This document shows positions 25,050 to 59,011 of a stretch of DNA of 64,000 nt, piece after piece; positions within the stretch are counted from its first letter, which is position 1; every line of letters begins with the position of its first letter. Below the pieces are notes generated by a model. That model was not told the DNA's origin. It searched no databases and saw only the letters and a list, made by a program, of their open reading frames with translations. The position numbers and the translations under genes were made by a program. The DNA is from Armatimonadota bacterium. GTDB taxonomy: Bacteria > Armatimonadota > SYMT01. The stretch spans positions 12,063-76,062 of the forward strand of contig JBKBRF010000030.1 of NCBI GenBank assembly GCA_046292385.1. The letters run 5' to 3'.

Positions 25050-25122
<73 letters not shown>

Positions 25123-25140
25123 CTTAACACACTTCCGGCC

Positions 25141-25213
25141 GCCGACGTAGCTCAGTTGGCAGAGCAGCTGTTTCGTAAACAGCAGGTCACCGGTTCGAGC
25201 CCGGTCGTCGGCT
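25141..25213 (+). tRNA. tRNA-Thr (CGT)
   Basis: Acceptor GCCGACG/CGTCGGC, anticodon arm GCTGT-TTCGTAA-ACAGC and GGTTCGAGCC T-loop. CCA is not encoded. Confidence 0.95.
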
Positions 25214-25734: not shown

Positions 25735-25959
25735 ATGAAAGTGCGCATCGAGTACTGCACCGCTTGAAACTACCTGCCCCGGGCCGTGGGCCTGGCCGAC
25801 AAGGTGTTGAACCATTACAAGACGGCGATCAGCTCGCTGGAGCTCGTCCCCAGCAGTGGGGGAGTGTTCGAAGTCTCCGTGGATGGGGAGCTGGCGTTCT
25901 CCAAGAAGGAGAGCGGGCGGTTTCCGGAGTGGGAGGAGATCCGGGGGGCGTTGGCCTGA
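25735..25959 (+). CDS. SelT/SelW/SelH (Rdx) family selenoprotein, Sec at UGA 25765-25767
   Basis: Manual translation MKVRIEYCTA-U-NYLPRAVGLADKVLNHYKTAISSLELVPSSGGVFEVSVDGELAFSKKESGRFPEWEEIRGALA. It carries CxxU plus the GG.FEV.VDG..FSK..GRFP Rdx signature and has a GGAG RBS. Absent from the ORF track. Confidence 0.92.
25779..25795 (+). promoter_or_regulatory. Putative bacterial SECIS hairpin of the Rdx selenoprotein
   Basis: CCGGGCC-GTG-GGCCTGG stem-loop. The G-initiated apical loop lies 18 nt after the UGA. Confidence 0.6.
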
Positions 25960-47037: not shown

Positions 47038-47191
47038 GCGTATTGCGTATTCCGTATTGCGTAGCGGCGGGCCTGCTGCGCTCTGCGGGTCATCCTGCCG
47101 GGCGAAACGCTGCGGGCAAGCGCCCGCCCGGCACGATGTCCTGGAACCGAGGTAGCGGCTGTCCGCTACGCAATACGCGATACGCGATACG
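47038..47191. repeat. Heptamer CGTATTG / ATACGCG-family inverted tandem-repeat element
   Basis: gcgtattgcgtattccgtattgcgtagcgg ... ccgctacgcaatacgcgatacgcgatacg. Confidence 0.85.
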
Positions 47192-47214
47192 TCCCACCCG
47201 CAGCCGAGTACGAG

Positions 47215-48693
47215 CTACGGGATCCGCCGATAGACGTAGAAGACGAACGGCTGGCGGTCGCGCGGGCGGCGGTACCGGAAGGTGCGCACCCGCGCGTATT
47301 GCTGCTCCCACTCGGGTCCGGCGGCGCTGGTGACGTTCTCCAGCTCTCGGGGGCGCAGGACGATCCACTCCGGCTGCCGGGTGCGGGCAATCTCCCAGAG
47401 GGGGGAGGGGCCGCCGCGCCGCCAGTAGGGGATTACCTCCGGCGAGACGAGGCCGATCACGTCGAGGATCCGGCGCCCGGAGAAGTAGCCGGCGTATCCG
47501 ATCGGCTCCAGCATGATCGTCTCGCCCGGCGCGACCTGCTCCCGCAGCCAGAGCGCCATCGGCTTTCGGAGCCGGTCCTCGATGAGCTGCGTGGTGCGAG
47601 CGGCGTGGTAGCTCCAGCCGACCAGCCCCACCGCCAGGACCGCGGCCGCCGTTCCCGCGAGCAGCCGGCCGGCGGCGGGCGGCTGCCGGCGGCACAGCGG
47701 CTCCGCGGCCGTGACGATCCCGATTCCTACCAGCAGGTCGTGCACTGGCAGCGGAGGGACGAGATACCACTCGAAAACCGGCACCCGCACGGCGGCGGCG
47801 ATGGCGCCCAGGTAGAGGAGGGCCCAGGCCAGCGGCGGAAGCAGCGCCCAGCTCCGGGCGGCGACCACCTGCCGCAGCCCGATCAGCGCCACCAGGTGTG
47901 CGGCCAGATAGGCCGGCTCCACCAGCCGCGTGAGCACCCCTCTCGTACCGGGGAACAGCTCCAGCGCGCCCGGCCAGTTGTAGACGGTCATCTTCGCCGC
48001 CGCGGTGCCGGGGAGCGGCGAGCCGAAGTAGAGAGTCGCGAACGCGAGCCACGGCGCCGCGAGCACGAGGAAGAGCGCCAGTCCGCGCCACGGAATCCGC
48101 CGCTCCCGGATCGTGAAGGCGACGGTGACGGCTCCCGCCAGCAGCGCGCCGTCCCAGCGCAGGAGGAAGAGGGCGGCGAGCAGCGCATAGGCCGGCAGCT
48201 CCCGCCGGTGGGTGTACGCCAGCCAGGCGGCGGCCCCACAGAGCGCGACGAGCGAGGTCTCCATCCCGGAGACCGCCCAGCGGATGTGGAGCGGGTGCAC
48301 GGCGATCCAGAACGCGGCGGCCCGCCCCGCGCGCTCCCATCCCAGTGCGGTGAGCCAGCGGTACGCCACCAGGCAGAGGGCGCCGTCCGCCGCGATGTTG
48401 AGCGCCTTTCCAACGTACAGCGCCGGCGCGCCGAGCCACGACGCCACCGCCAGCAGCAGGGTGTAGAGCGGGGTGGTGGTCCCCAGCACCCGCTCTCCCG
48501 GGTTGTAGACAAAGCCGAGCCCGTGCGCCAGGTTTTCCGCGTAGCGCAGCGTGATGAGCGCATCCTCGTTGGTGAAGTGCGTTCCCCACGCCACCCCCAC
48601 CCGAACCAGCACCGCCAGCGCGGCCAGCACCCACACCAGCGGCGGGATGAGAGGGGAGGAGGGGGCAGTCGGCTCCGGAGAAGGTTGGCTCAT
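47215..48693 (-). CDS. GT-C-fold integral membrane glycosyltransferase-like protein
   Basis: EDALITLRYAENLAHGLGFVYNPGERVLGTTTPLYTLLL, SGMET, RWDG and D..GLVSP motifs, with many TM helices. Confidence 0.8.
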   Translation of the reverse strand: MSQPSPEPTAPSSPLIPPLVWVLAALAVLVRVGVAWGTHFTNEDALITLRYAENLAHGLGFVYNPGERVLGTTTPLYTLLLAVASWLGAPALYVGKALNIAADGALCLVAYRWLTALGWERAGRAAAFWIAVHPLHIRWAVSGMETSLVALCGAAAWLAYTHRRELPAYALLAALFLLRWDGALLAGAVTVAFTIRERRIPWRGLALFLVLAAPWLAFATLYFGSPLPGTAAAKMTVYNWPGALELFPGTRGVLTRLVEPAYLAAHLVALIGLRQVVAARSWALLPPLAWALLYLGAIAAAVRVPVFEWYLVPPLPVHDLLVGIGIVTAAEPLCRRQPPAAGRLLAGTAAAVLAVGLVGWSYHAARTTQLIEDRLRKPMALWLREQVAPGETIMLEPIGYAGYFSGRRILDVIGLVSPEVIPYWRRGGPSPLWEIARTRQPEWIVLRPRELENVTSAAGPEWEQQYARVRTFRYRRPRDRQPFVFYVYRRIP

Positions 48694-48810
48694 GAAAAAA
48701 GGTAGCGGGAGCTTGCCGGCTCTGCGGCCAGGGGTGGGGCAGCTCGAGTGGGCGGGAGGCGTTTTTTGCGGAAGCGCTCGCCCGGTGAAGGATTTTCCCG
48801 CCGCCAGGAA

Positions 48811-48839
48811 GGAACACCACTGAAGAGCCGCCAGTCCAA
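48811..48839 (+). promoter_or_regulatory. Possible ECF (sigmaE-like) promoter
   Basis: GGAAC-N18-GTCCAA upstream of an outer-membrane protein gene. Motif match only. Confidence 0.3.
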
Positions 48840-48959
48840 TGGCTGGTAGCCTGTTACCTGGTTCCCCACGCCCGGACCAAGTTTAGAGGCAACCCACCCC
48901 GCACGTCCGGCCGGCTCCGGCGTCCGCCCCGCCGTCCGCTGCCCCGAGAGCTCCACTCG

Positions 48960-50945
48960 ATGACGACTCGCATCCTCCGCCTGCTTCTGCTCCTGGCGCT
49001 CGTCTGCTGCGGCGGCCTTCGCCCGGCCCACGCGGCCGGCTCGATCCGCGTCACCGTAAGCCCCAACGTGCTGCTGGCGGACGGCATCAGCACTACCACG
49101 GTGACGGCGGAGGTGCGCAACTCCAACGGACGCCCGGCGCGGGACGGCACGGAAGTGCGATTCTACACCACCGCCGGCACCATCACGCAGGTGGCGTTCA
49201 CCTCGGCGGGCGTGGCGCGGGCCACGCTCACCTCCTCCGCGGTGCCGCAGGCGGCGAACATCAGCGTCTCGGCCGGCCTGGACCAGTCCGTCATCACCGT
49301 GCCGATGGTGAGCAAGCTGGTGGAGGCAAACGTCGGCGGGCGCGTGATGCGCATCACCGGCAAGTACGTGGCGTACAGTGAGGACAAGCGCTACATCCAG
49401 GCGGACGACCAGGTGCGGGTGAAGTACCGCGGCGTCACGCTGGAAGCGAACTCGGTCCAGATCGACCTCAACCAGGACACCGTGAAGGCCCTGGGGAAGA
49501 TCCAGATCGCCAGCGACGACAAAACGATGGTCGGCGAGCGGCTCTGGTGGAATCTCAAGACGTTCGAAGGCTACATCCTGGCGGTGGGGGACCGGCAGTG
49601 GTTCAGCGCCTACGGCCTGACCGAGCTGCCGGAGCGTCCGAAGGAGATGAACCCGGACTTCGACCTGGTCGACATCTCCGACAGCAAGCTGGTCTGGGTC
49701 GCCGATCAGGCGAACTACGTGGTGGGCGAGCGAGTGCAGGTACAGGGCGCTCGCGCCTACGTAGGCGGCATCAAGAGCATCCGCATGCCGTTCCACCAGT
49801 CGCACCTGAACGGCGGCGGCTCCTTCGGCACGGGCACCGACCAGTACGTCGGCCTCGGCACCGAGGGCCTGTCGCTGAACATCCCGCTCTACGTGCGGAT
49901 GACCCCCGGCTCCAGCACGGCGTTCAACGTCGGCTACGGCTCCCGCGGCGGGGTCGGCTACTTCAACCGGAACAACGGGCTCAACATCGACCTCGTCCAG
50001 CGCTACGGCTTCTCCGGCGCCAGCGAGGGCGAGGCGGCGCTCACCAACATCAACTCGCTCGACCGGTGGGGCTTCCAGTGGAACCACATGCACCAGGTCA
50101 CCAAGAGCACCCGCCTGGTGACCAACCTGCAGTTCCCGTCCCACCGCGACCTCTATGCCCAGGCGAACCTGACCCAGGGCCTGCCGATCGGCACGCTGCA
50201 GCTCGCCGTCTCCGGCCAGAAGCCCCAGCGGGCCGGCTTCTCCAAGACCTACCAGATCGGCTTCGAGTCGAAGCCGAAGCCGCTGCTGGACGGCAAAGTG
50301 GGCGTCTCGTTCGAGGCCAGCGCGTTCGGGCAGGACAAGCAGGATGTGCGGCTCGGCGCCAACCTCAGCCCGGCAGCGCGGCGCGCCTTCCGCGGCAACC
50401 GGATCGCGGTGCCGGCCAGGCAGTACCAGAGCTTCGGCATCCGGGCGCGTCCGGCGTCGCTCTCGCTGGGCAGCGGTCTCACCCTCGACTCCAGCGTCTC
50501 CCTGCGAGCGGTCACCGGCACCATCGGCAGCAGCTTCGGCCCCTCGTTCGAGACGACGGTCCGCAAGCAGCTCGGCAACAACGGCTTCATCCAGGCCGGC
50601 CTGCGCTACAACAACTTGACCACGATCTCGGACGTGATCCCGAACCAGGGGAAGCTCGGCGCCACCTTCAACGCGATGGTGCCGGTCGGCAGCCGCTTCA
50701 AGCTGAGCGCCTTCGGCACGATGGCGCTCGACGCCACCAACCACCACAGCCTCCTCCAGGCGAGCTACCAGCTCTCCGACAAGTGGCGCCTCGACTTCCT
50801 CCACTCGCTTTTCCAATTCGGCGAGTTCGGCAACTTCGACTACCAGCTCGGCATCGCGAGAATGCTCGGCGACCGGGAGCTCGGCCTCTACTGGAGCCAC
50901 CGGGAGCACCGGGTGCTGGTAGAGTTCGGCGCCGCACGATTCTAG
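48960..50945 (+). CDS. Secreted Ig-like (invasin/Big_1) domain protein fused to an LptD/OstA-like outer-membrane domain
   Basis: Signal peptide, LLADGISTTTVTAEVRNSNGRPARDGTEVRF Big_1-like segment, OstA-like beta-jellyroll, amphipathic beta strands and a terminal Phe. Confidence 0.65.
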   Translation: MTTRILRLLLLLALVCCGGLRPAHAAGSIRVTVSPNVLLADGISTTTVTAEVRNSNGRPARDGTEVRFYTTAGTITQVAFTSAGVARATLTSSAVPQAANISVSAGLDQSVITVPMVSKLVEANVGGRVMRITGKYVAYSEDKRYIQADDQVRVKYRGVTLEANSVQIDLNQDTVKALGKIQIASDDKTMVGERLWWNLKTFEGYILAVGDRQWFSAYGLTELPERPKEMNPDFDLVDISDSKLVWVADQANYVVGERVQVQGARAYVGGIKSIRMPFHQSHLNGGGSFGTGTDQYVGLGTEGLSLNIPLYVRMTPGSSTAFNVGYGSRGGVGYFNRNNGLNIDLVQRYGFSGASEGEAALTNINSLDRWGFQWNHMHQVTKSTRLVTNLQFPSHRDLYAQANLTQGLPIGTLQLAVSGQKPQRAGFSKTYQIGFESKPKPLLDGKVGVSFEASAFGQDKQDVRLGANLSPAARRAFRGNRIAVPARQYQSFGIRARPASLSLGSGLTLDSSVSLRAVTGTIGSSFGPSFETTVRKQLGNNGFIQAGLRYNNLTTISDVIPNQGKLGATFNAMVPVGSRFKLSAFGTMALDATNHHSLLQASYQLSDKWRLDFLHSLFQFGEFGNFDYQLGIARMLGDRELGLYWSHREHRVLVEFGAARF

Positions 50946-51121
50946 GGTGTAGGGTGTAGCGTTTAGGGTGTAGGTCTGTGGTTGGCGGACTGCGCCATTC
51001 GGGCACGGCTGCTTCTGCACTCGCTTTTGACCGGCACCAGCGGCGGGAATAGAGGCGCATCGGTTGGGGTGAGCCCAGCCAACCGTGCCCCTACACGCTA
51101 CACCCTACACCCTAAACCCTT
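50943..51121. repeat. Heptamer (TAGGGTG / CACCCTA) inverted tandem-repeat element
   Basis: tagggtgtagggtgtagcgtttagggtgtagg ... ccctacacgctacaccctacaccctaaaccct. Confidence 0.88.
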
Positions 51122-51202: not shown

Positions 51203-51231
51203 TTGACGCCCCTCAGGGGCCGTCCTATACT
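51203..51231 (+). promoter_or_regulatory. Sigma70-type promoter
   Basis: TTGACG-17 bp-TATACT about 50 bp upstream of the ATG at 51284. Confidence 0.7.
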
Positions 51232-51283: not shown

Positions 51284-52504
51284 ATGTCACTCAACGTCAG
51301 CCAGGACCAGTTGCTCCAGGGCAAGGTCGGCGAGGTCCGCCGCCGCATCCGCCTCCTGCTCGCGCAGCAGTGGCTCTGCGTGGGGCTGGCGGCCGCGATG
51401 GCGGCGAGCCTGCTGCTGGTGGCGCTCACCAAGCTCCAGTGGTGGACCGACGCGATGGACTACATCTGGGCGCTGATCCTCCTCGGCGGGATCGTGGGGT
51501 TCATCGTCGGGTGGTCCCGCAAGATCACCCCGATGGCGGCGGCGCAGATCGCGGACGAGCGCGCCGGCCTGAAGGAGCGGCTCTCCACGGCGGTGGAGCT
51601 CTCGTCCCGCGAGCGCACGGAGCTGACCGACGCGCAGATCCACGACGCCGCGCGCCACGCCGAATCGCTGCGCGCCTCCGAAGTGCTGCCGTGGCGCGCG
51701 CCGAAGCACCTCCGCTGGGTGGCGGCGGCCGGCGCGGTGCTGGCGGCGGTCGTCTTCGTCCCGGATCTGCCGATCTTCCACACCAAGCAGGAGCTGGCGG
51801 ACCGCGAGGCGATGCGGACCGAGGGCGAGCGGATCCAGCAGATCGCGAAGAGCCTGGAGAAGAAGGCCAGGGAGCAGCGCGCGGACGACAAGAACGCCGA
51901 GATCCTGCGCCAGATCAGCCAGAACATGAAGCAGGTGGGGAAAGACGCCGCCAAAAACCGGATCTCCAAGAAGCAGGCTCTCCTGAAGATGGGCGAGCTC
52001 CAGAAGCAGCTCCGCGACGCCGAGGAGAAGCTGGGCGGCGGCAAGCCGGGCCAGAAGTCGATGGACCAGGTAGCGGCGGACCTGCAGGAAGCAGCGAACA
52101 AGGCGGCCGGCTCCGGCGACAAGGAGAAGGCGAAGTCGCTCCAGCAGATGGCGGAGAACCTTTCCAAGCGGGATTTCGACGGGGCGAAGCGCCAGCTCGA
52201 GGAGATGGCGCAGAAGATCCAATCCGGCAAGATGAGCTCCGAGGAAGCCCAGAAGGCGGCGGAGACGCTGGAGCAGATGGCCGCTTCGATGGACAAGTCG
52301 GGCCTGCAGGAAGCGGCCGAGCAGATGCGCGCCGCGGCGGAGCAGCTCAAGAAGGCCTCCGAGCAGGTGAAGCAGCTCGAGCAGCAGATGGCACAGGCGA
52401 AGACCGACGCCGAGCGGCAGCAGATCCAGCAGCAGATGGAGCAGACGATGCAGCAGGCCGCCCAGCAGGCGGCGAGCGACTGCAAACAGGCGGGCGGCAC
52501 ATGA
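51284..52504 (+). CDS. MoxR-associated membrane-anchored coiled-coil protein, N-terminal part (ends at an in-frame UGA that is probably read through to 53083)
   Basis: Three TM segments, AAAQIADERAGLKERLSTAVEL motif and a long Q/E/K/A coiled coil. The frame stays open after UGA 52502-52504. Confidence 0.85.
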   Translation: MSLNVSQDQLLQGKVGEVRRRIRLLLAQQWLCVGLAAAMAASLLLVALTKLQWWTDAMDYIWALILLGGIVGFIVGWSRKITPMAAAQIADERAGLKERLSTAVELSSRERTELTDAQIHDAARHAESLRASEVLPWRAPKHLRWVAAAGAVLAAVVFVPDLPIFHTKQELADREAMRTEGERIQQIAKSLEKKAREQRADDKNAEILRQISQNMKQVGKDAAKNRISKKQALLKMGELQKQLRDAEEKLGGGKPGQKSMDQVAADLQEAANKAAGSGDKEKAKSLQQMAENLSKRDFDGAKRQLEEMAQKIQSGKMSSEEAQKAAETLEQMAASMDKSGLQEAAEQMRAAAEQLKKASEQVKQLEQQMAQAKTDAERQQIQQQMEQTMQQAAQQAASDCKQAGGT

Positions 52505-53083
52505 GCGTCCACCGGTAAAGCCCAGCAGGCTGCTGGGTCCATGCAAGAGCTTTCGAAGTCTCTCCAGTCGGCGCAGAAGTCACTCCAGCAGGCAGGCCTC
52601 CAGTCCGCCAAGAACGGACAGCAAGGCGGACAGCAGGGCCAGGGACAGGGCCAGGGCAAGAACGGCGAGTCCGGCGCCAGCGATGAGGAGTGGGGGAAGG
52701 AATTCCGACCCGGCGGCTCCCAGCAGGCGAAGGGCTCCGCCTCCGGCAGAGGTGGTCAGAAGCCGCAGGGCGGCAAGCAGGGCAGCGGCAGTGGCCAGGG
52801 CATGCAAGGAGCCGGCCGTGGCGCCGGCGGCAGCGCCGGACCGCAGCAGCCGCTCCCCGGCAGCAAGAAGGACAGCCTGATTACCCCGATGGTGAACGAG
52901 AAGGGCGACAAGCTGACCCGCAGCTACATGGGCACCCCCGACCCGACGCAGGACCGCGCCGCCTACTACAGCGTCGTACCGCAGAAGACCCGTGCCGCGG
53001 AAGCCTCGCTGAACCGGGAAGAGATCCCCGCCGGCTACAAGAAGCAGGTGAAAGAGTATTTCGAGTCGATCCAACCGAAGTAG
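52505..53083 (+). CDS. C-terminal part of the same coiled-coil protein (Gly/Gln-rich linker and conserved-looking terminus); ORF track starts it at ATG 52541
   Basis: Same frame as 51284-52504 with no intervening stop. Ends EEIPAGYKKQVKEYFESI. No clear SD before ATG 52541. Confidence 0.75.
   Translation, partial: ASTGKAQQAAGSMQELSKSLQSAQKSLQQAGLQSAKNGQQGGQQGQGQGQGKNGESGASDEEWGKEFRPGGSQQAKGSASGRGGQKPQGGKQGSGSGQGMQGAGRGAGGSAGPQQPLPGSKKDSLITPMVNEKGDKLTRSYMGTPDPTQDRAAYYSVVPQKTRAAEASLNREEIPAGYKKQVKEYFESIQPK
52520..52538 (+). promoter_or_regulatory. Putative bacterial SECIS hairpin
   Basis: GCCCAGCA-GGC-TGCTGGGT 8-bp stem. The G-initiated loop lies 23 nt after the in-frame UGA. Confidence 0.5.
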
Positions 53084-53257
53084 GAAGGGTCTAGGGGGTA
53101 GGGTTTAGGGTGTAGGACTGTGGCGCCGGGTGCGCCATTCGACTGCGGTTGCGCCTGCCCTTATTCTTGCCTCTCGACCACGGCAGTTCAGCTCTCGGTT
53201 TGGATGATCCCCGCCCTCGTATCCCCAAGACCCTGGACCCTAACCCCTAGACCCTAG
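53081..53257. repeat. TAGGGT-family inverted tandem-repeat element
   Basis: agggtctagggggtagggtttagggtgtagg ... accctggaccctaacccctagacccta. Shares internal ctgtgg...tgcgccattcg with 50943-51121. Confidence 0.85.
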
Positions 53258-53273: not shown

Positions 53274-54299
<1,026 letters not shown>

Positions 54300-54671: not shown

Positions 54672-54695
54672 ATCGTAATCCCTAGACCCCAGAAA

Positions 54696-55972: not shown

Positions 55973-56347
<375 letters not shown>

Positions 56348-56430
56348 TCTTTGCGGAGGCGTTCACCACCTCCCGGCCGTGAGTGGGAGCGAGGGCGAGT
56401 GGGGGAGTGGGAGAGCCACTCTCCGGTGTT

Positions 56431-58958: not shown

Positions 58959-59011
58959 CGCGCGCGAGTAAACTCGGCGCTACATAGAGCGAAGCCCGCC
59001 TGCGCGGGCTG
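58959..59011 (-). repeat. GTAG-type REP-like palindrome between convergent genes
   Basis: The minus strand reads AGCCCGCGCAGGCGGGCTTCG...GTAGCGCCGAGTTTACTCGCGC: two hairpins with a GTAG foot. Confidence 0.6.

Follow-up and report, generated by a model that had tools for sequence, protein, structure and literature searches.

A probable selenoprotein with a helical, membrane-anchored scaffold encoded beside moxR in an Armatimonadota bacterium

We analysed a 64,000-nucleotide stretch of DNA from an Armatimonadota bacterium (contig JBKBRF010000030.1 of assembly GCA_046292385.1), hereafter the window, in which a gene at positions 51284-53083 of the forward strand is split by one in-frame TGA codon and is followed by a gene for a MoxR-type AAA+ ATPase. 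This gene very probably encodes one membrane protein that contains selenocysteine (Sec) and is a partner of MoxR. As judged by comparison with related sequences, the UGA codon is conserved, Sec is paired with Cys, a hairpin of the selenocysteine insertion sequence (SECIS) type covaries, the machinery for Sec is present and the neighbourhood of moxR is syntenic.

The in-frame TGA codon and its conservation in relatives

Positions 51284-53083 form a single reading frame of 599 codons followed by TAG, and the sole internal TGA, at 52502-52504, is codon 407. The peptide around it reads SDCKQAGGT-U-ASTGKAQQAAGSMQE, where U stands for codon 407 and ASTGK follows U directly. The protein has just two Cys: C32 in the first membrane helix and, seven residues ahead of Sec407, Cys400 (TGC at 52481-52483), which is alone in the soluble part. 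An earlier sequence-only reading of this DNA had described just this arrangement, one frame broken by a single TGA and a Cx6U spacing in a nearly Cys-free protein. Orthologs align over residues 5-599 and their N-termini start at the same Met, in agreement with the extent of the whole gene.

A homolog was found in 26 of 41 related genomes, and 14 of those 26 carry the TGA form, recognized by the motif G[TGS]-U. When 19 loci were aligned with TGA read as U, 12 shared a column in which TGA follows a conserved A-G-G-T, and another five had Cys in that column; G028 and G038, with TGA after GGT and GST respectively, bring the TGA-form genomes to 14. A scan of metagenome contigs with the single protein gave no homologs, and a second scan with an alignment gave them: TGA was present in 12/12 close homologs reaching the site and in six more distant ones (26-34% identity). 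After two duplicates, two false hits past a true stop and one ambiguous case were dropped, 34 distinct Sec-form orthologous sequences remained, with TGA in one shared motif, GG[TG]-U. Cys occupies the TGA column in L003, L008, L009, L016, L019, L043 and three full-length database homologs (P0003-P0005), so that the proposed inspection of codon 407 in orthologs turned up TGA or Cys. Planctomycete homologs have CxxC at the site or within one column of it, and other members lack Cys there. In a family tree of 84 rows we counted 25 Sec, 11 Cys and 27 CxxC forms and 21 with none of these, and some of the Cys forms were nested inside Sec clades; because this is a FastTree with a midpoint root only, the order of the Sec and Cys states is not readable from the tree alone.

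One alternative is that the TGA is a true stop, giving a 406-residue membrane protein and either a separate 180-residue protein from the ATG at 52541 or nothing, with the hairpin described below lying between cistrons. We consider this very unlikely. It is in line with the database, where gene callers annotate 44/44 short homologs (46-62% identical) in this way, ending them exactly in AGGT or AAGT, with stops 13-20 codons past the TGA in the metagenome contigs L113 and L116, and with the availability of ATG 52541 as a start. On the other hand, Sec forms that reach the C-terminal motif have it in frame with the N-terminal part, and the Cys forms are single uninterrupted open reading frames (ORFs) with Cys exactly at the TGA column, so the earlier view that the N- and C-terminal motifs belong to one polypeptide held in the relatives. 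The stretch between the TGA and the first ATG is also constrained at the protein level: among 17 close orthologs, codon +2 is Ser in 16 (TCC 13, TCT 2, AGC 1) and codon +4 is Gly in 15, via three synonymous codons. By these substitutions, the stretch from the TGA to the hairpin has the character of coding sequence in the 17 close orthologs. Moreover, Met at 52541 is not conserved, being Leu or other residues in relatives, and no GGAGG-like Shine-Dalgarno stretch was found ahead of ATG 52541, as the sequence-only reading had noted.

A sequencing or assembly error, or a recent pseudogene, could in principle explain the TGA, since there is just one nonsense codon and the assembly, in 91 contigs, is of metagenome style. 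We judge this refuted, with hardly any probability left to it: the same codon is found in the 34 distinct orthologs, which come from separate assemblies and go down to about 26% identity, and conservation at the protein level continues downstream to residue 599. The TGA is also kept in contigs of two other samples, which answers the earlier concern about an assembly error. In X2, a DNA contig from a soil run (52429-53047), the codon at 52502-52504 is unchanged, with one substitution and a 6-nt deletion elsewhere. In X16, a contig from a rhizosphere RNA library (52320-52547, 20 differences), it is likewise unchanged, a match by which transcription is not proven. Portions of the stretch that had no cover in X3 and X5, and short X2 and X5 pieces ending 6 nt past the TGA, were left out as evidence.

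The SECIS-type hairpin and the selenocysteine machinery

A hairpin of the SECIS type occupies positions 52520-52538 of the forward strand. Its 8-bp stem is made of GCCCAGCA (52520-52527) and TGCTGGGT (52531-52538) and encloses the loop GGC (52528-52530), which begins 23 nt after the TGA, so that the 8-bp hairpin with a G-initiated loop reported before is confirmed. The criteria for bacterial SECIS (bSECIS) elements are a loop of 3-9 nt, a stem of 4-16 bp, G in the first two loop positions, a UGA-loop distance of 16-37 nt and a minimum free energy of -7.5 kcal/mol or below (PMC13188914). The window hairpin passes all four bSECIS criteria: its 3-nt loop starts with G and lies 23 nt from the UGA, its stem has 8 bp, and its energy is -12.4 kcal/mol. 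Only 1.2% of the codon positions of the gene offer a hairpin as good as this in SECIS geometry; because so few positions have one and the TGA recurs in 34 orthologs, the TGA feature is beyond chance. In a strict bulge-free scan, 28/32 Sec forms agreed with the bSECIS criteria, against 11.5% of the other codons in the same genes.

Conservation of the stem was examined in the 17 close orthologs, in which 91% of the cells are paired and six of the eight pairs show a compensatory change; the observed values were reached by 0/500 shuffles. Moving the 3' partner by 1-3 columns cuts the pairing to 14-47%. These are the conserved and covarying pairs that the sequence-only reading had asked for. A distant clade of 12 sequences has another hairpin, CGCACUG-GGU-CAGUGCG, at an equal distance, 93% paired and without covariation. 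The local codon usage is unusual as well, as had been suspected: in five neighbour genes supported by Pfam, GGT makes up 8% of the Gly codons, AAA 4% of the Lys codons and GCT 3% of the Ala codons, and the 3' arm of the hairpin contains two of the gene's four GCT codons.

The genome carries what is needed to read UGA as Sec. On contig 11 (87438-90122, reverse strand), selA (578 bits), selD (362 bits, with its own in-frame TGA) and a tRNA-Sec gene (66.6 bits) lie side by side, and selB (367 bits) is on contig 16; all four are above curated cut-offs, and the Sec genes that were to be looked for are thus present. Among the 41 related genomes, 32 have selA above the cut-off, including all 14 with the TGA form, and this confinement (14/14) argues further against a true stop. 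Of the nine related genomes without a selA match, three have a homolog and none has a TGA form. Genomes with a Cys form likewise have selA, and the Cys forms are therefore not explained by loss of the Sec system. In the reading we prefer, the TGA at 52502-52504 would be decoded as Sec by SelA, SelB, SelD and tRNA-Sec, steered by the hairpin at 52520-52538.

That UGA is instead read as another residue (Trp, Gly or Cys via a near-cognate tRNA), or is reassigned altogether, would also leave the frame open past the UGA. We regard this as highly improbable. UGA terminates 3/5 neighbouring genes as an ordinary stop, so it is not reassigned; the column holds Cys in homologs, not Trp or Gly; and the genome has every part of the Sec system, along with a SECIS-type hairpin in the gene.

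A second gene of the window is also of selenoprotein type. It belongs to the SelW/Rdx family (25738-25944, +; PF10262, 74.5 bits), contains one in-frame TGA, as had been recognized from the letters, and lies just downstream of two tRNA genes (25050-25213).

Several observations weigh against a Sec-encoding role of the TGA. The evidence for Sec is comparative throughout. Hairpins are frequent in this GC-rich selenoprotein gene, and the 81 nt surrounding the site are no more stably folded than shuffled versions (z = +0.30), a measure that is uninformative in GC-rich DNA. Four of the 32 Sec forms (L005, L010, L112 and L117) fall short of the strict energy threshold in the bulge-free scan. Nor is the hairpin exclusive to Sec forms: it is kept in the Cys forms L008 and L009 and absent in L003 and the distant Cys forms. 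The hairpins of L008 and L009 are possibly a relic of a recent change from Sec to Cys. The difference in hairpin energy between Sec and Cys forms is not significant (33 vs 8, one-sided p = 0.11), and we did not use it as support. The early stops of the two metagenome contigs belong here too: in L113 a single base shifts the frame within the hairpin loop, after which the expected sequence resumes in another frame, and in L116 the last ~50 nt diverge at the contig end. Two Sec forms, L010 and L014, have no nearby Cys. Finally, neither Cys nor Sec is found at the site in 21/84 tree members. Since about a quarter of the members lack the site, it is an accessory of the family and not its core, and its role is probably regulatory.

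Two family members show in-frame TGAs in other arrangements. L109, from a metagenome-assembled genome labelled Planctomycetota, has the family motifs LKERLSS and IPAGYKKLVKDYF and two in-frame TGAs at residues 430 and 442 (SGGT-U and GEG-U), 12 codons apart; CQKC stands ahead of them, and downstream of the second is a hairpin of 8 bp with the loop GGU. In L194, a distant member from G038, the in-frame TGA is at residue 543 (DCPPGST-U), in the Gly/Gln-rich linker and not in the helical domain, and its relative L197 has neither Cys nor TGA at that linker site.

Architecture of the protein and its MoxR neighbour

An AlphaFold2 (AF2) model was built from a 40-sequence alignment (mean predicted local distance difference test, pLDDT, 80.6; predicted TM-score 0.54). 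It starts with two predicted membrane helices at about residues 29-49 and 58-78 (51368-51517, +; AF2 helices 7-50 and 58-78). They are followed by a conserved loop domain, residues 79-142 (51518-51709, +), which AF2 models as a small helical region at 83-134 and which has nearly invariant columns, among them D121-A122 and R-x-GLKERLS[ST]A, the most conserved motif of the family. A third predicted membrane helix spans about residues 143-161 (51710-51766, +), supported by AF2 helix 142-161 and a hydrophobic stretch in the sequence. An all-helical domain with the Sec site comes next (residues 165-447; 51776-52624, +), where the means of 10-residue pLDDT blocks are 76-97 over blocks 161-440 and about 72 for 441-450, and its helix 375-447 includes residue 407. 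A low-complexity linker rich in Gly and Gln covers residues 453-560 (52640-52963, +), with pLDDT <50 over 453-566. The protein ends in a two-helix motif, AAYY..V....AAE.SL..EEIP..YK..V..YF.SI (52964-53080, +), in which P582, Y592 and F593 are invariant and AF2 places helices at 561-578 and 583-596. A promoter-like site (TTGACG, 17 nt, TATACT; 51203-51231, +) stands ahead of the ATG; it is a pattern match only, from a consensus scan that gave 1 site against 0.1 expected in shuffles.

Averaged over the 40 sequences, Lys and Arg residues number 4.3 in the flank at the N-terminus, against 1.3 in the first loop; around the third helix, the counts are 3.0 on its N-terminal and 2.1 on its C-terminal side. 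Together with the positive-inside rule, these counts suggest that the N-terminus and the loop 79-142 are inside and the helical domain is outside.

For the read-through protein, Pfam gave no family above the cut-off, and sub-threshold matches (sugar transporter, Wzy_C, SPC12, PYRIN) were treated as noise; NCBIfam gave 0 matches at E <= 0.001. A fold search of the AF2 model against the PDB returned nothing at E <= 0.001, only generic helical proteins, and a profile search of solved structures returned only de novo designed coiled-coil bundles, which we rejected as driven by composition. The database homologs are all called hypothetical or are unnamed, except two with generic automatic names.

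The gene directly downstream, moxR (53274-54299, +), encodes an AAA_3 ATPase (PF07726, 213 bits; AAA_lid_2, 62 bits). A MoxR homolog directly follows the selenoprotein-family gene in 80/167 related loci searched, and many of the other loci end before that point. The gene order in the relative L045 is ABC-2 permease, selenoprotein-family member, MoxR, DUF58 and BatA/vWA, and upstream genes for ABC transporters are found in L049 and L043 too. In the window, the gene following moxR encodes a rhomboid-TPR protein; no DUF58 or vWA gene was found beside moxR there, and the genome's four DUF58 matches are on other contigs. The earlier assignment to a MoxR/vWA system is thus right as to MoxR, which adjoins the gene, and fails as to vWA, for which neither a vWA nor a DUF58 gene is adjacent in the window. 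Upstream on the reverse strand (47090-51020) are two large divergent ORFs of 576 and 776 aa with no Pfam or NCBIfam match; we tried them as part of the conserved unit and rejected them, as they have no counterpart in the related loci searched.

A complex model of MoxR with residues 79-142 scored 0.72, and the best of three controls scored 0.01. The 0.72 mark was reached by 58/80 solved complexes and by 2/110 mismatched pairs, counts that are only rough, as analysis-specific alignments were used. The model runs share at least 87% of their contacts, with a partner pLDDT of at least 76. The predicted interface involves loop residues 97-99, 101-103 and 121-122 and the MoxR lid region at 229-236 and 282-294. 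The model thus supports binding, and the loop domain 79-142 is predicted to dock on the lid region of MoxR. To our knowledge, there is no solved complex of MoxR with such a loop domain.

If these predictions are combined, the product would be one 599-residue membrane protein with two membrane helices, then the GLKERLSTA loop domain docking on MoxR, the AAA+ ATPase encoded directly downstream, at its lid region, and after this loop a third membrane helix, the long helical domain with Sec407, the disordered Gly/Gln linker and the conserved C-terminal motif. This picture is weakened at three points: the complex model is the one line of evidence for the docking, the contrast in the charge counts used for the topology is modest, and the helix around residue 407 belongs to a predicted model and includes Gly-Gly.

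The Sec/Cys site, related systems and further observations

A Cys is found within 12 residues of Sec in 32/34 Sec forms, which gives some support to a Cys-Sec redox or metal site, and 29/34 have no other Cys in the soluble part of roughly 400 residues. Among 18 close orthologs the partner Cys is at +3 (UxxC) in 11 and at -7 (Cx6U, including the window) in six, one has neither and none has both; +10 prevails in the distant clade. Of the 38 Cys lying within 12 residues of Sec, 30 are at one of these three positions, and -7, 0, +3 and +10 lie on one face of the predicted helix. A placement of Sec and Cys at a/d positions of a coiled-coil core was tried and given up. Since leucines 423, 427 and 434 are off the a/d register, we limit the claim to the same face of the predicted helix. 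The site occurs as Sec, Cys or CxxC, or is absent, depending on the lineage.

The site is probably a paired selenol/thiol that is either redox-active or metal-binding. A role of the pair as a redox switch is a fair possibility, if somewhat short of an even chance. As a second and more doubtful possibility, Sec is inserted and the pair serves as a ligand for a metal (e.g. Cu, Zn, Hg or Cd) between helices or protomers, the protein being a metal sensor or a metal-handling scaffold for MoxR. The presence of Sec and the partner Cys on one face of the predicted helix fits this, as does the consideration that a Cys at -7 or +10 is unlikely to bond directly to Sec while both are part of one straight helix; the helix may, however, break at Gly-Gly. 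Metal-binding and CopZ-like families are among the catalogued selenoproteins in Table 1 of a 2026 review (PMC13188914), and MoxR ATPases have been postulated to aid metal insertion into the metal-ion-dependent adhesion (MIDAS) sites of the vWA domains of Bat proteins (PMC3557215). Against a metal ligand, neither a metal-binding domain nor further ligand residues were detected with Pfam and NCBIfam, and the UxxC and CxxC of many members are also a classic redox motif.

Under the preferred reading of a Sec-containing partner of MoxR, the Sec/Cys pair would be a redox-active (selenylsulfide) or metal-binding site, through which the MoxR-coupled envelope protein would react to oxidants or metals present across the membrane from MoxR. 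We tentatively propose, as a rather unlikely elaboration, that the family supplies the chemical handle so far lacking for the MoxR/Bat envelope systems: the Sec/Cys site on the helical domain would sense oxidants or metals across the membrane and relay its state via the membrane anchor to the docked MoxR, with selenium tuning the sensitivity of a widespread stress module. The sensing step in this scheme would use selenylsulfide or diselenide bonds, or a metal shared between protomers, and we hold it to be no less speculative. Gene order and the predicted interface tie the gene to a MoxR AAA+ ATPase, and its selenium/thiol site makes redox or metal sensing across the membrane a testable hypothesis.

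The gene resembles bacterial selenoprotein genes with a SECIS inside the ORF and decoding by SelB, of which E. coli fdhF is the prototype, in its in-frame UGA, in the small loop beginning with G at a distance of 16-37 nt downstream, in having Cys-containing homologs and in the presence of selA, selB, selC and selD in the genome. Its product differs from known bacterial selenoproteins: instead of an oxidoreductase fold, it has three helices that anchor it in the membrane and a long helical domain. A thioredoxin-like fold is found in most characterised selenoproteins (PMC13188914), and a membrane-anchored helical protein is an unusual scaffold for Sec.

With the Bat (Bacteroides aerotolerance) operons of Bacteroides, Leptospira and Borrelia, which have the order MoxR-DUF58-BatA(vWA), the gene shares the adjacency to a MoxR AAA_3 gene, and L045 has the full order. 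The window protein itself has no BatA, VWA or TPR match in Pfam, and no DUF58 or vWA gene is adjacent to it. Bat proteins were once proposed to act on the periplasmic redox state, a deletion study in Leptospira gave no oxidative-stress phenotype, and since 1999 there has been no agreement on what MoxR/Bat systems do (PMC3557215).

Two further comparisons concern partners and motifs. MoxR AAA+ ATPases with dedicated partners include RavA-ViaA and CbbQ-CbbO. As in these pairs, MoxR is encoded here beside its predicted contact partner, which is the small helical loop domain of a membrane protein and not a vWA protein. UGSC proteins are small soluble proteins. The letters U-G-S-C of the UGSC-containing family NF041046 occur at the site in the orthologs L004, L005 and L112, whereas the window reads U-A-S-T, and the window protein has no NF041046 match (NCBIfam, E <= 0.001).

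The family could not be found catalogued as a selenoprotein family. Among the 119 prokaryotic families and subfamilies in Table 1 of the 2026 review (PMC13188914), no entry describes such a protein, families defined by cd or PTHR models only lying outside our model scan; no catalogued model was matched, in keeping with the earlier impression that the family was new. The accessible text of the deep-Sep paper names no such family. A full-text literature search gave nothing linking selenoproteins to MoxR and no work combining selenocysteine with "Bacteroides aerotolerance". For selenoproteins in Armatimonadetes or Armatimonadota the full-text search likewise gave nothing relevant, and supplementary tables (S9 Table of PMC4807772, Table S2 of PMC12013277) could list a member. 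The family would add a widespread and systematically mis-annotated group to the bacterial selenoproteome: because gene calls are cut at the Sec codon in 44/44 close database homologs, the selenoproteins of these lineages are under-counted and under-annotated.

Other observations concern the relatives and the surroundings of the gene. L041 and L044, family-level relatives of the window, are labelled Actinomycetota/Actinomycetes, and such labels may be inconsistent; for the other named relatives with Sec or Cys forms (L042-L057, L063, L067, L069, L081 and L083), the label is Armatimonadota or Chthonomonadales.

A heptamer resembling a telomere repeat, TAGGGTN, occurs in short arrays in the window, at 50943-50975 (+), 51089-51121 (-), 53085-53117 (+), 53231-53256 (-) and 54680-54691 (-), forming inverted pairs in the intergenic gaps flanking the selenoprotein gene and after moxR. 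The arm after the selenoprotein stop codon is G-rich, with four GGG runs. The window has 16 matches against 0.24 expected, and the genome has 165 exact matches, often paired +/- at distances of 70-200 bp; the reversed control gave 0. Arrays occur in only 2/198 fetched loci, both from the genome of the window, and TAGGGTN looks like a genome-specific dispersed intergenic repeat.

A borderline CRISPR-DR28 match at 58988-59011 (+; 35.4 against a 35-bit threshold) is probably due to chance. Just downstream of the rhomboid-TPR gene, the window encodes an RNase P RNA (55975-56348, +; 265.7 bits).

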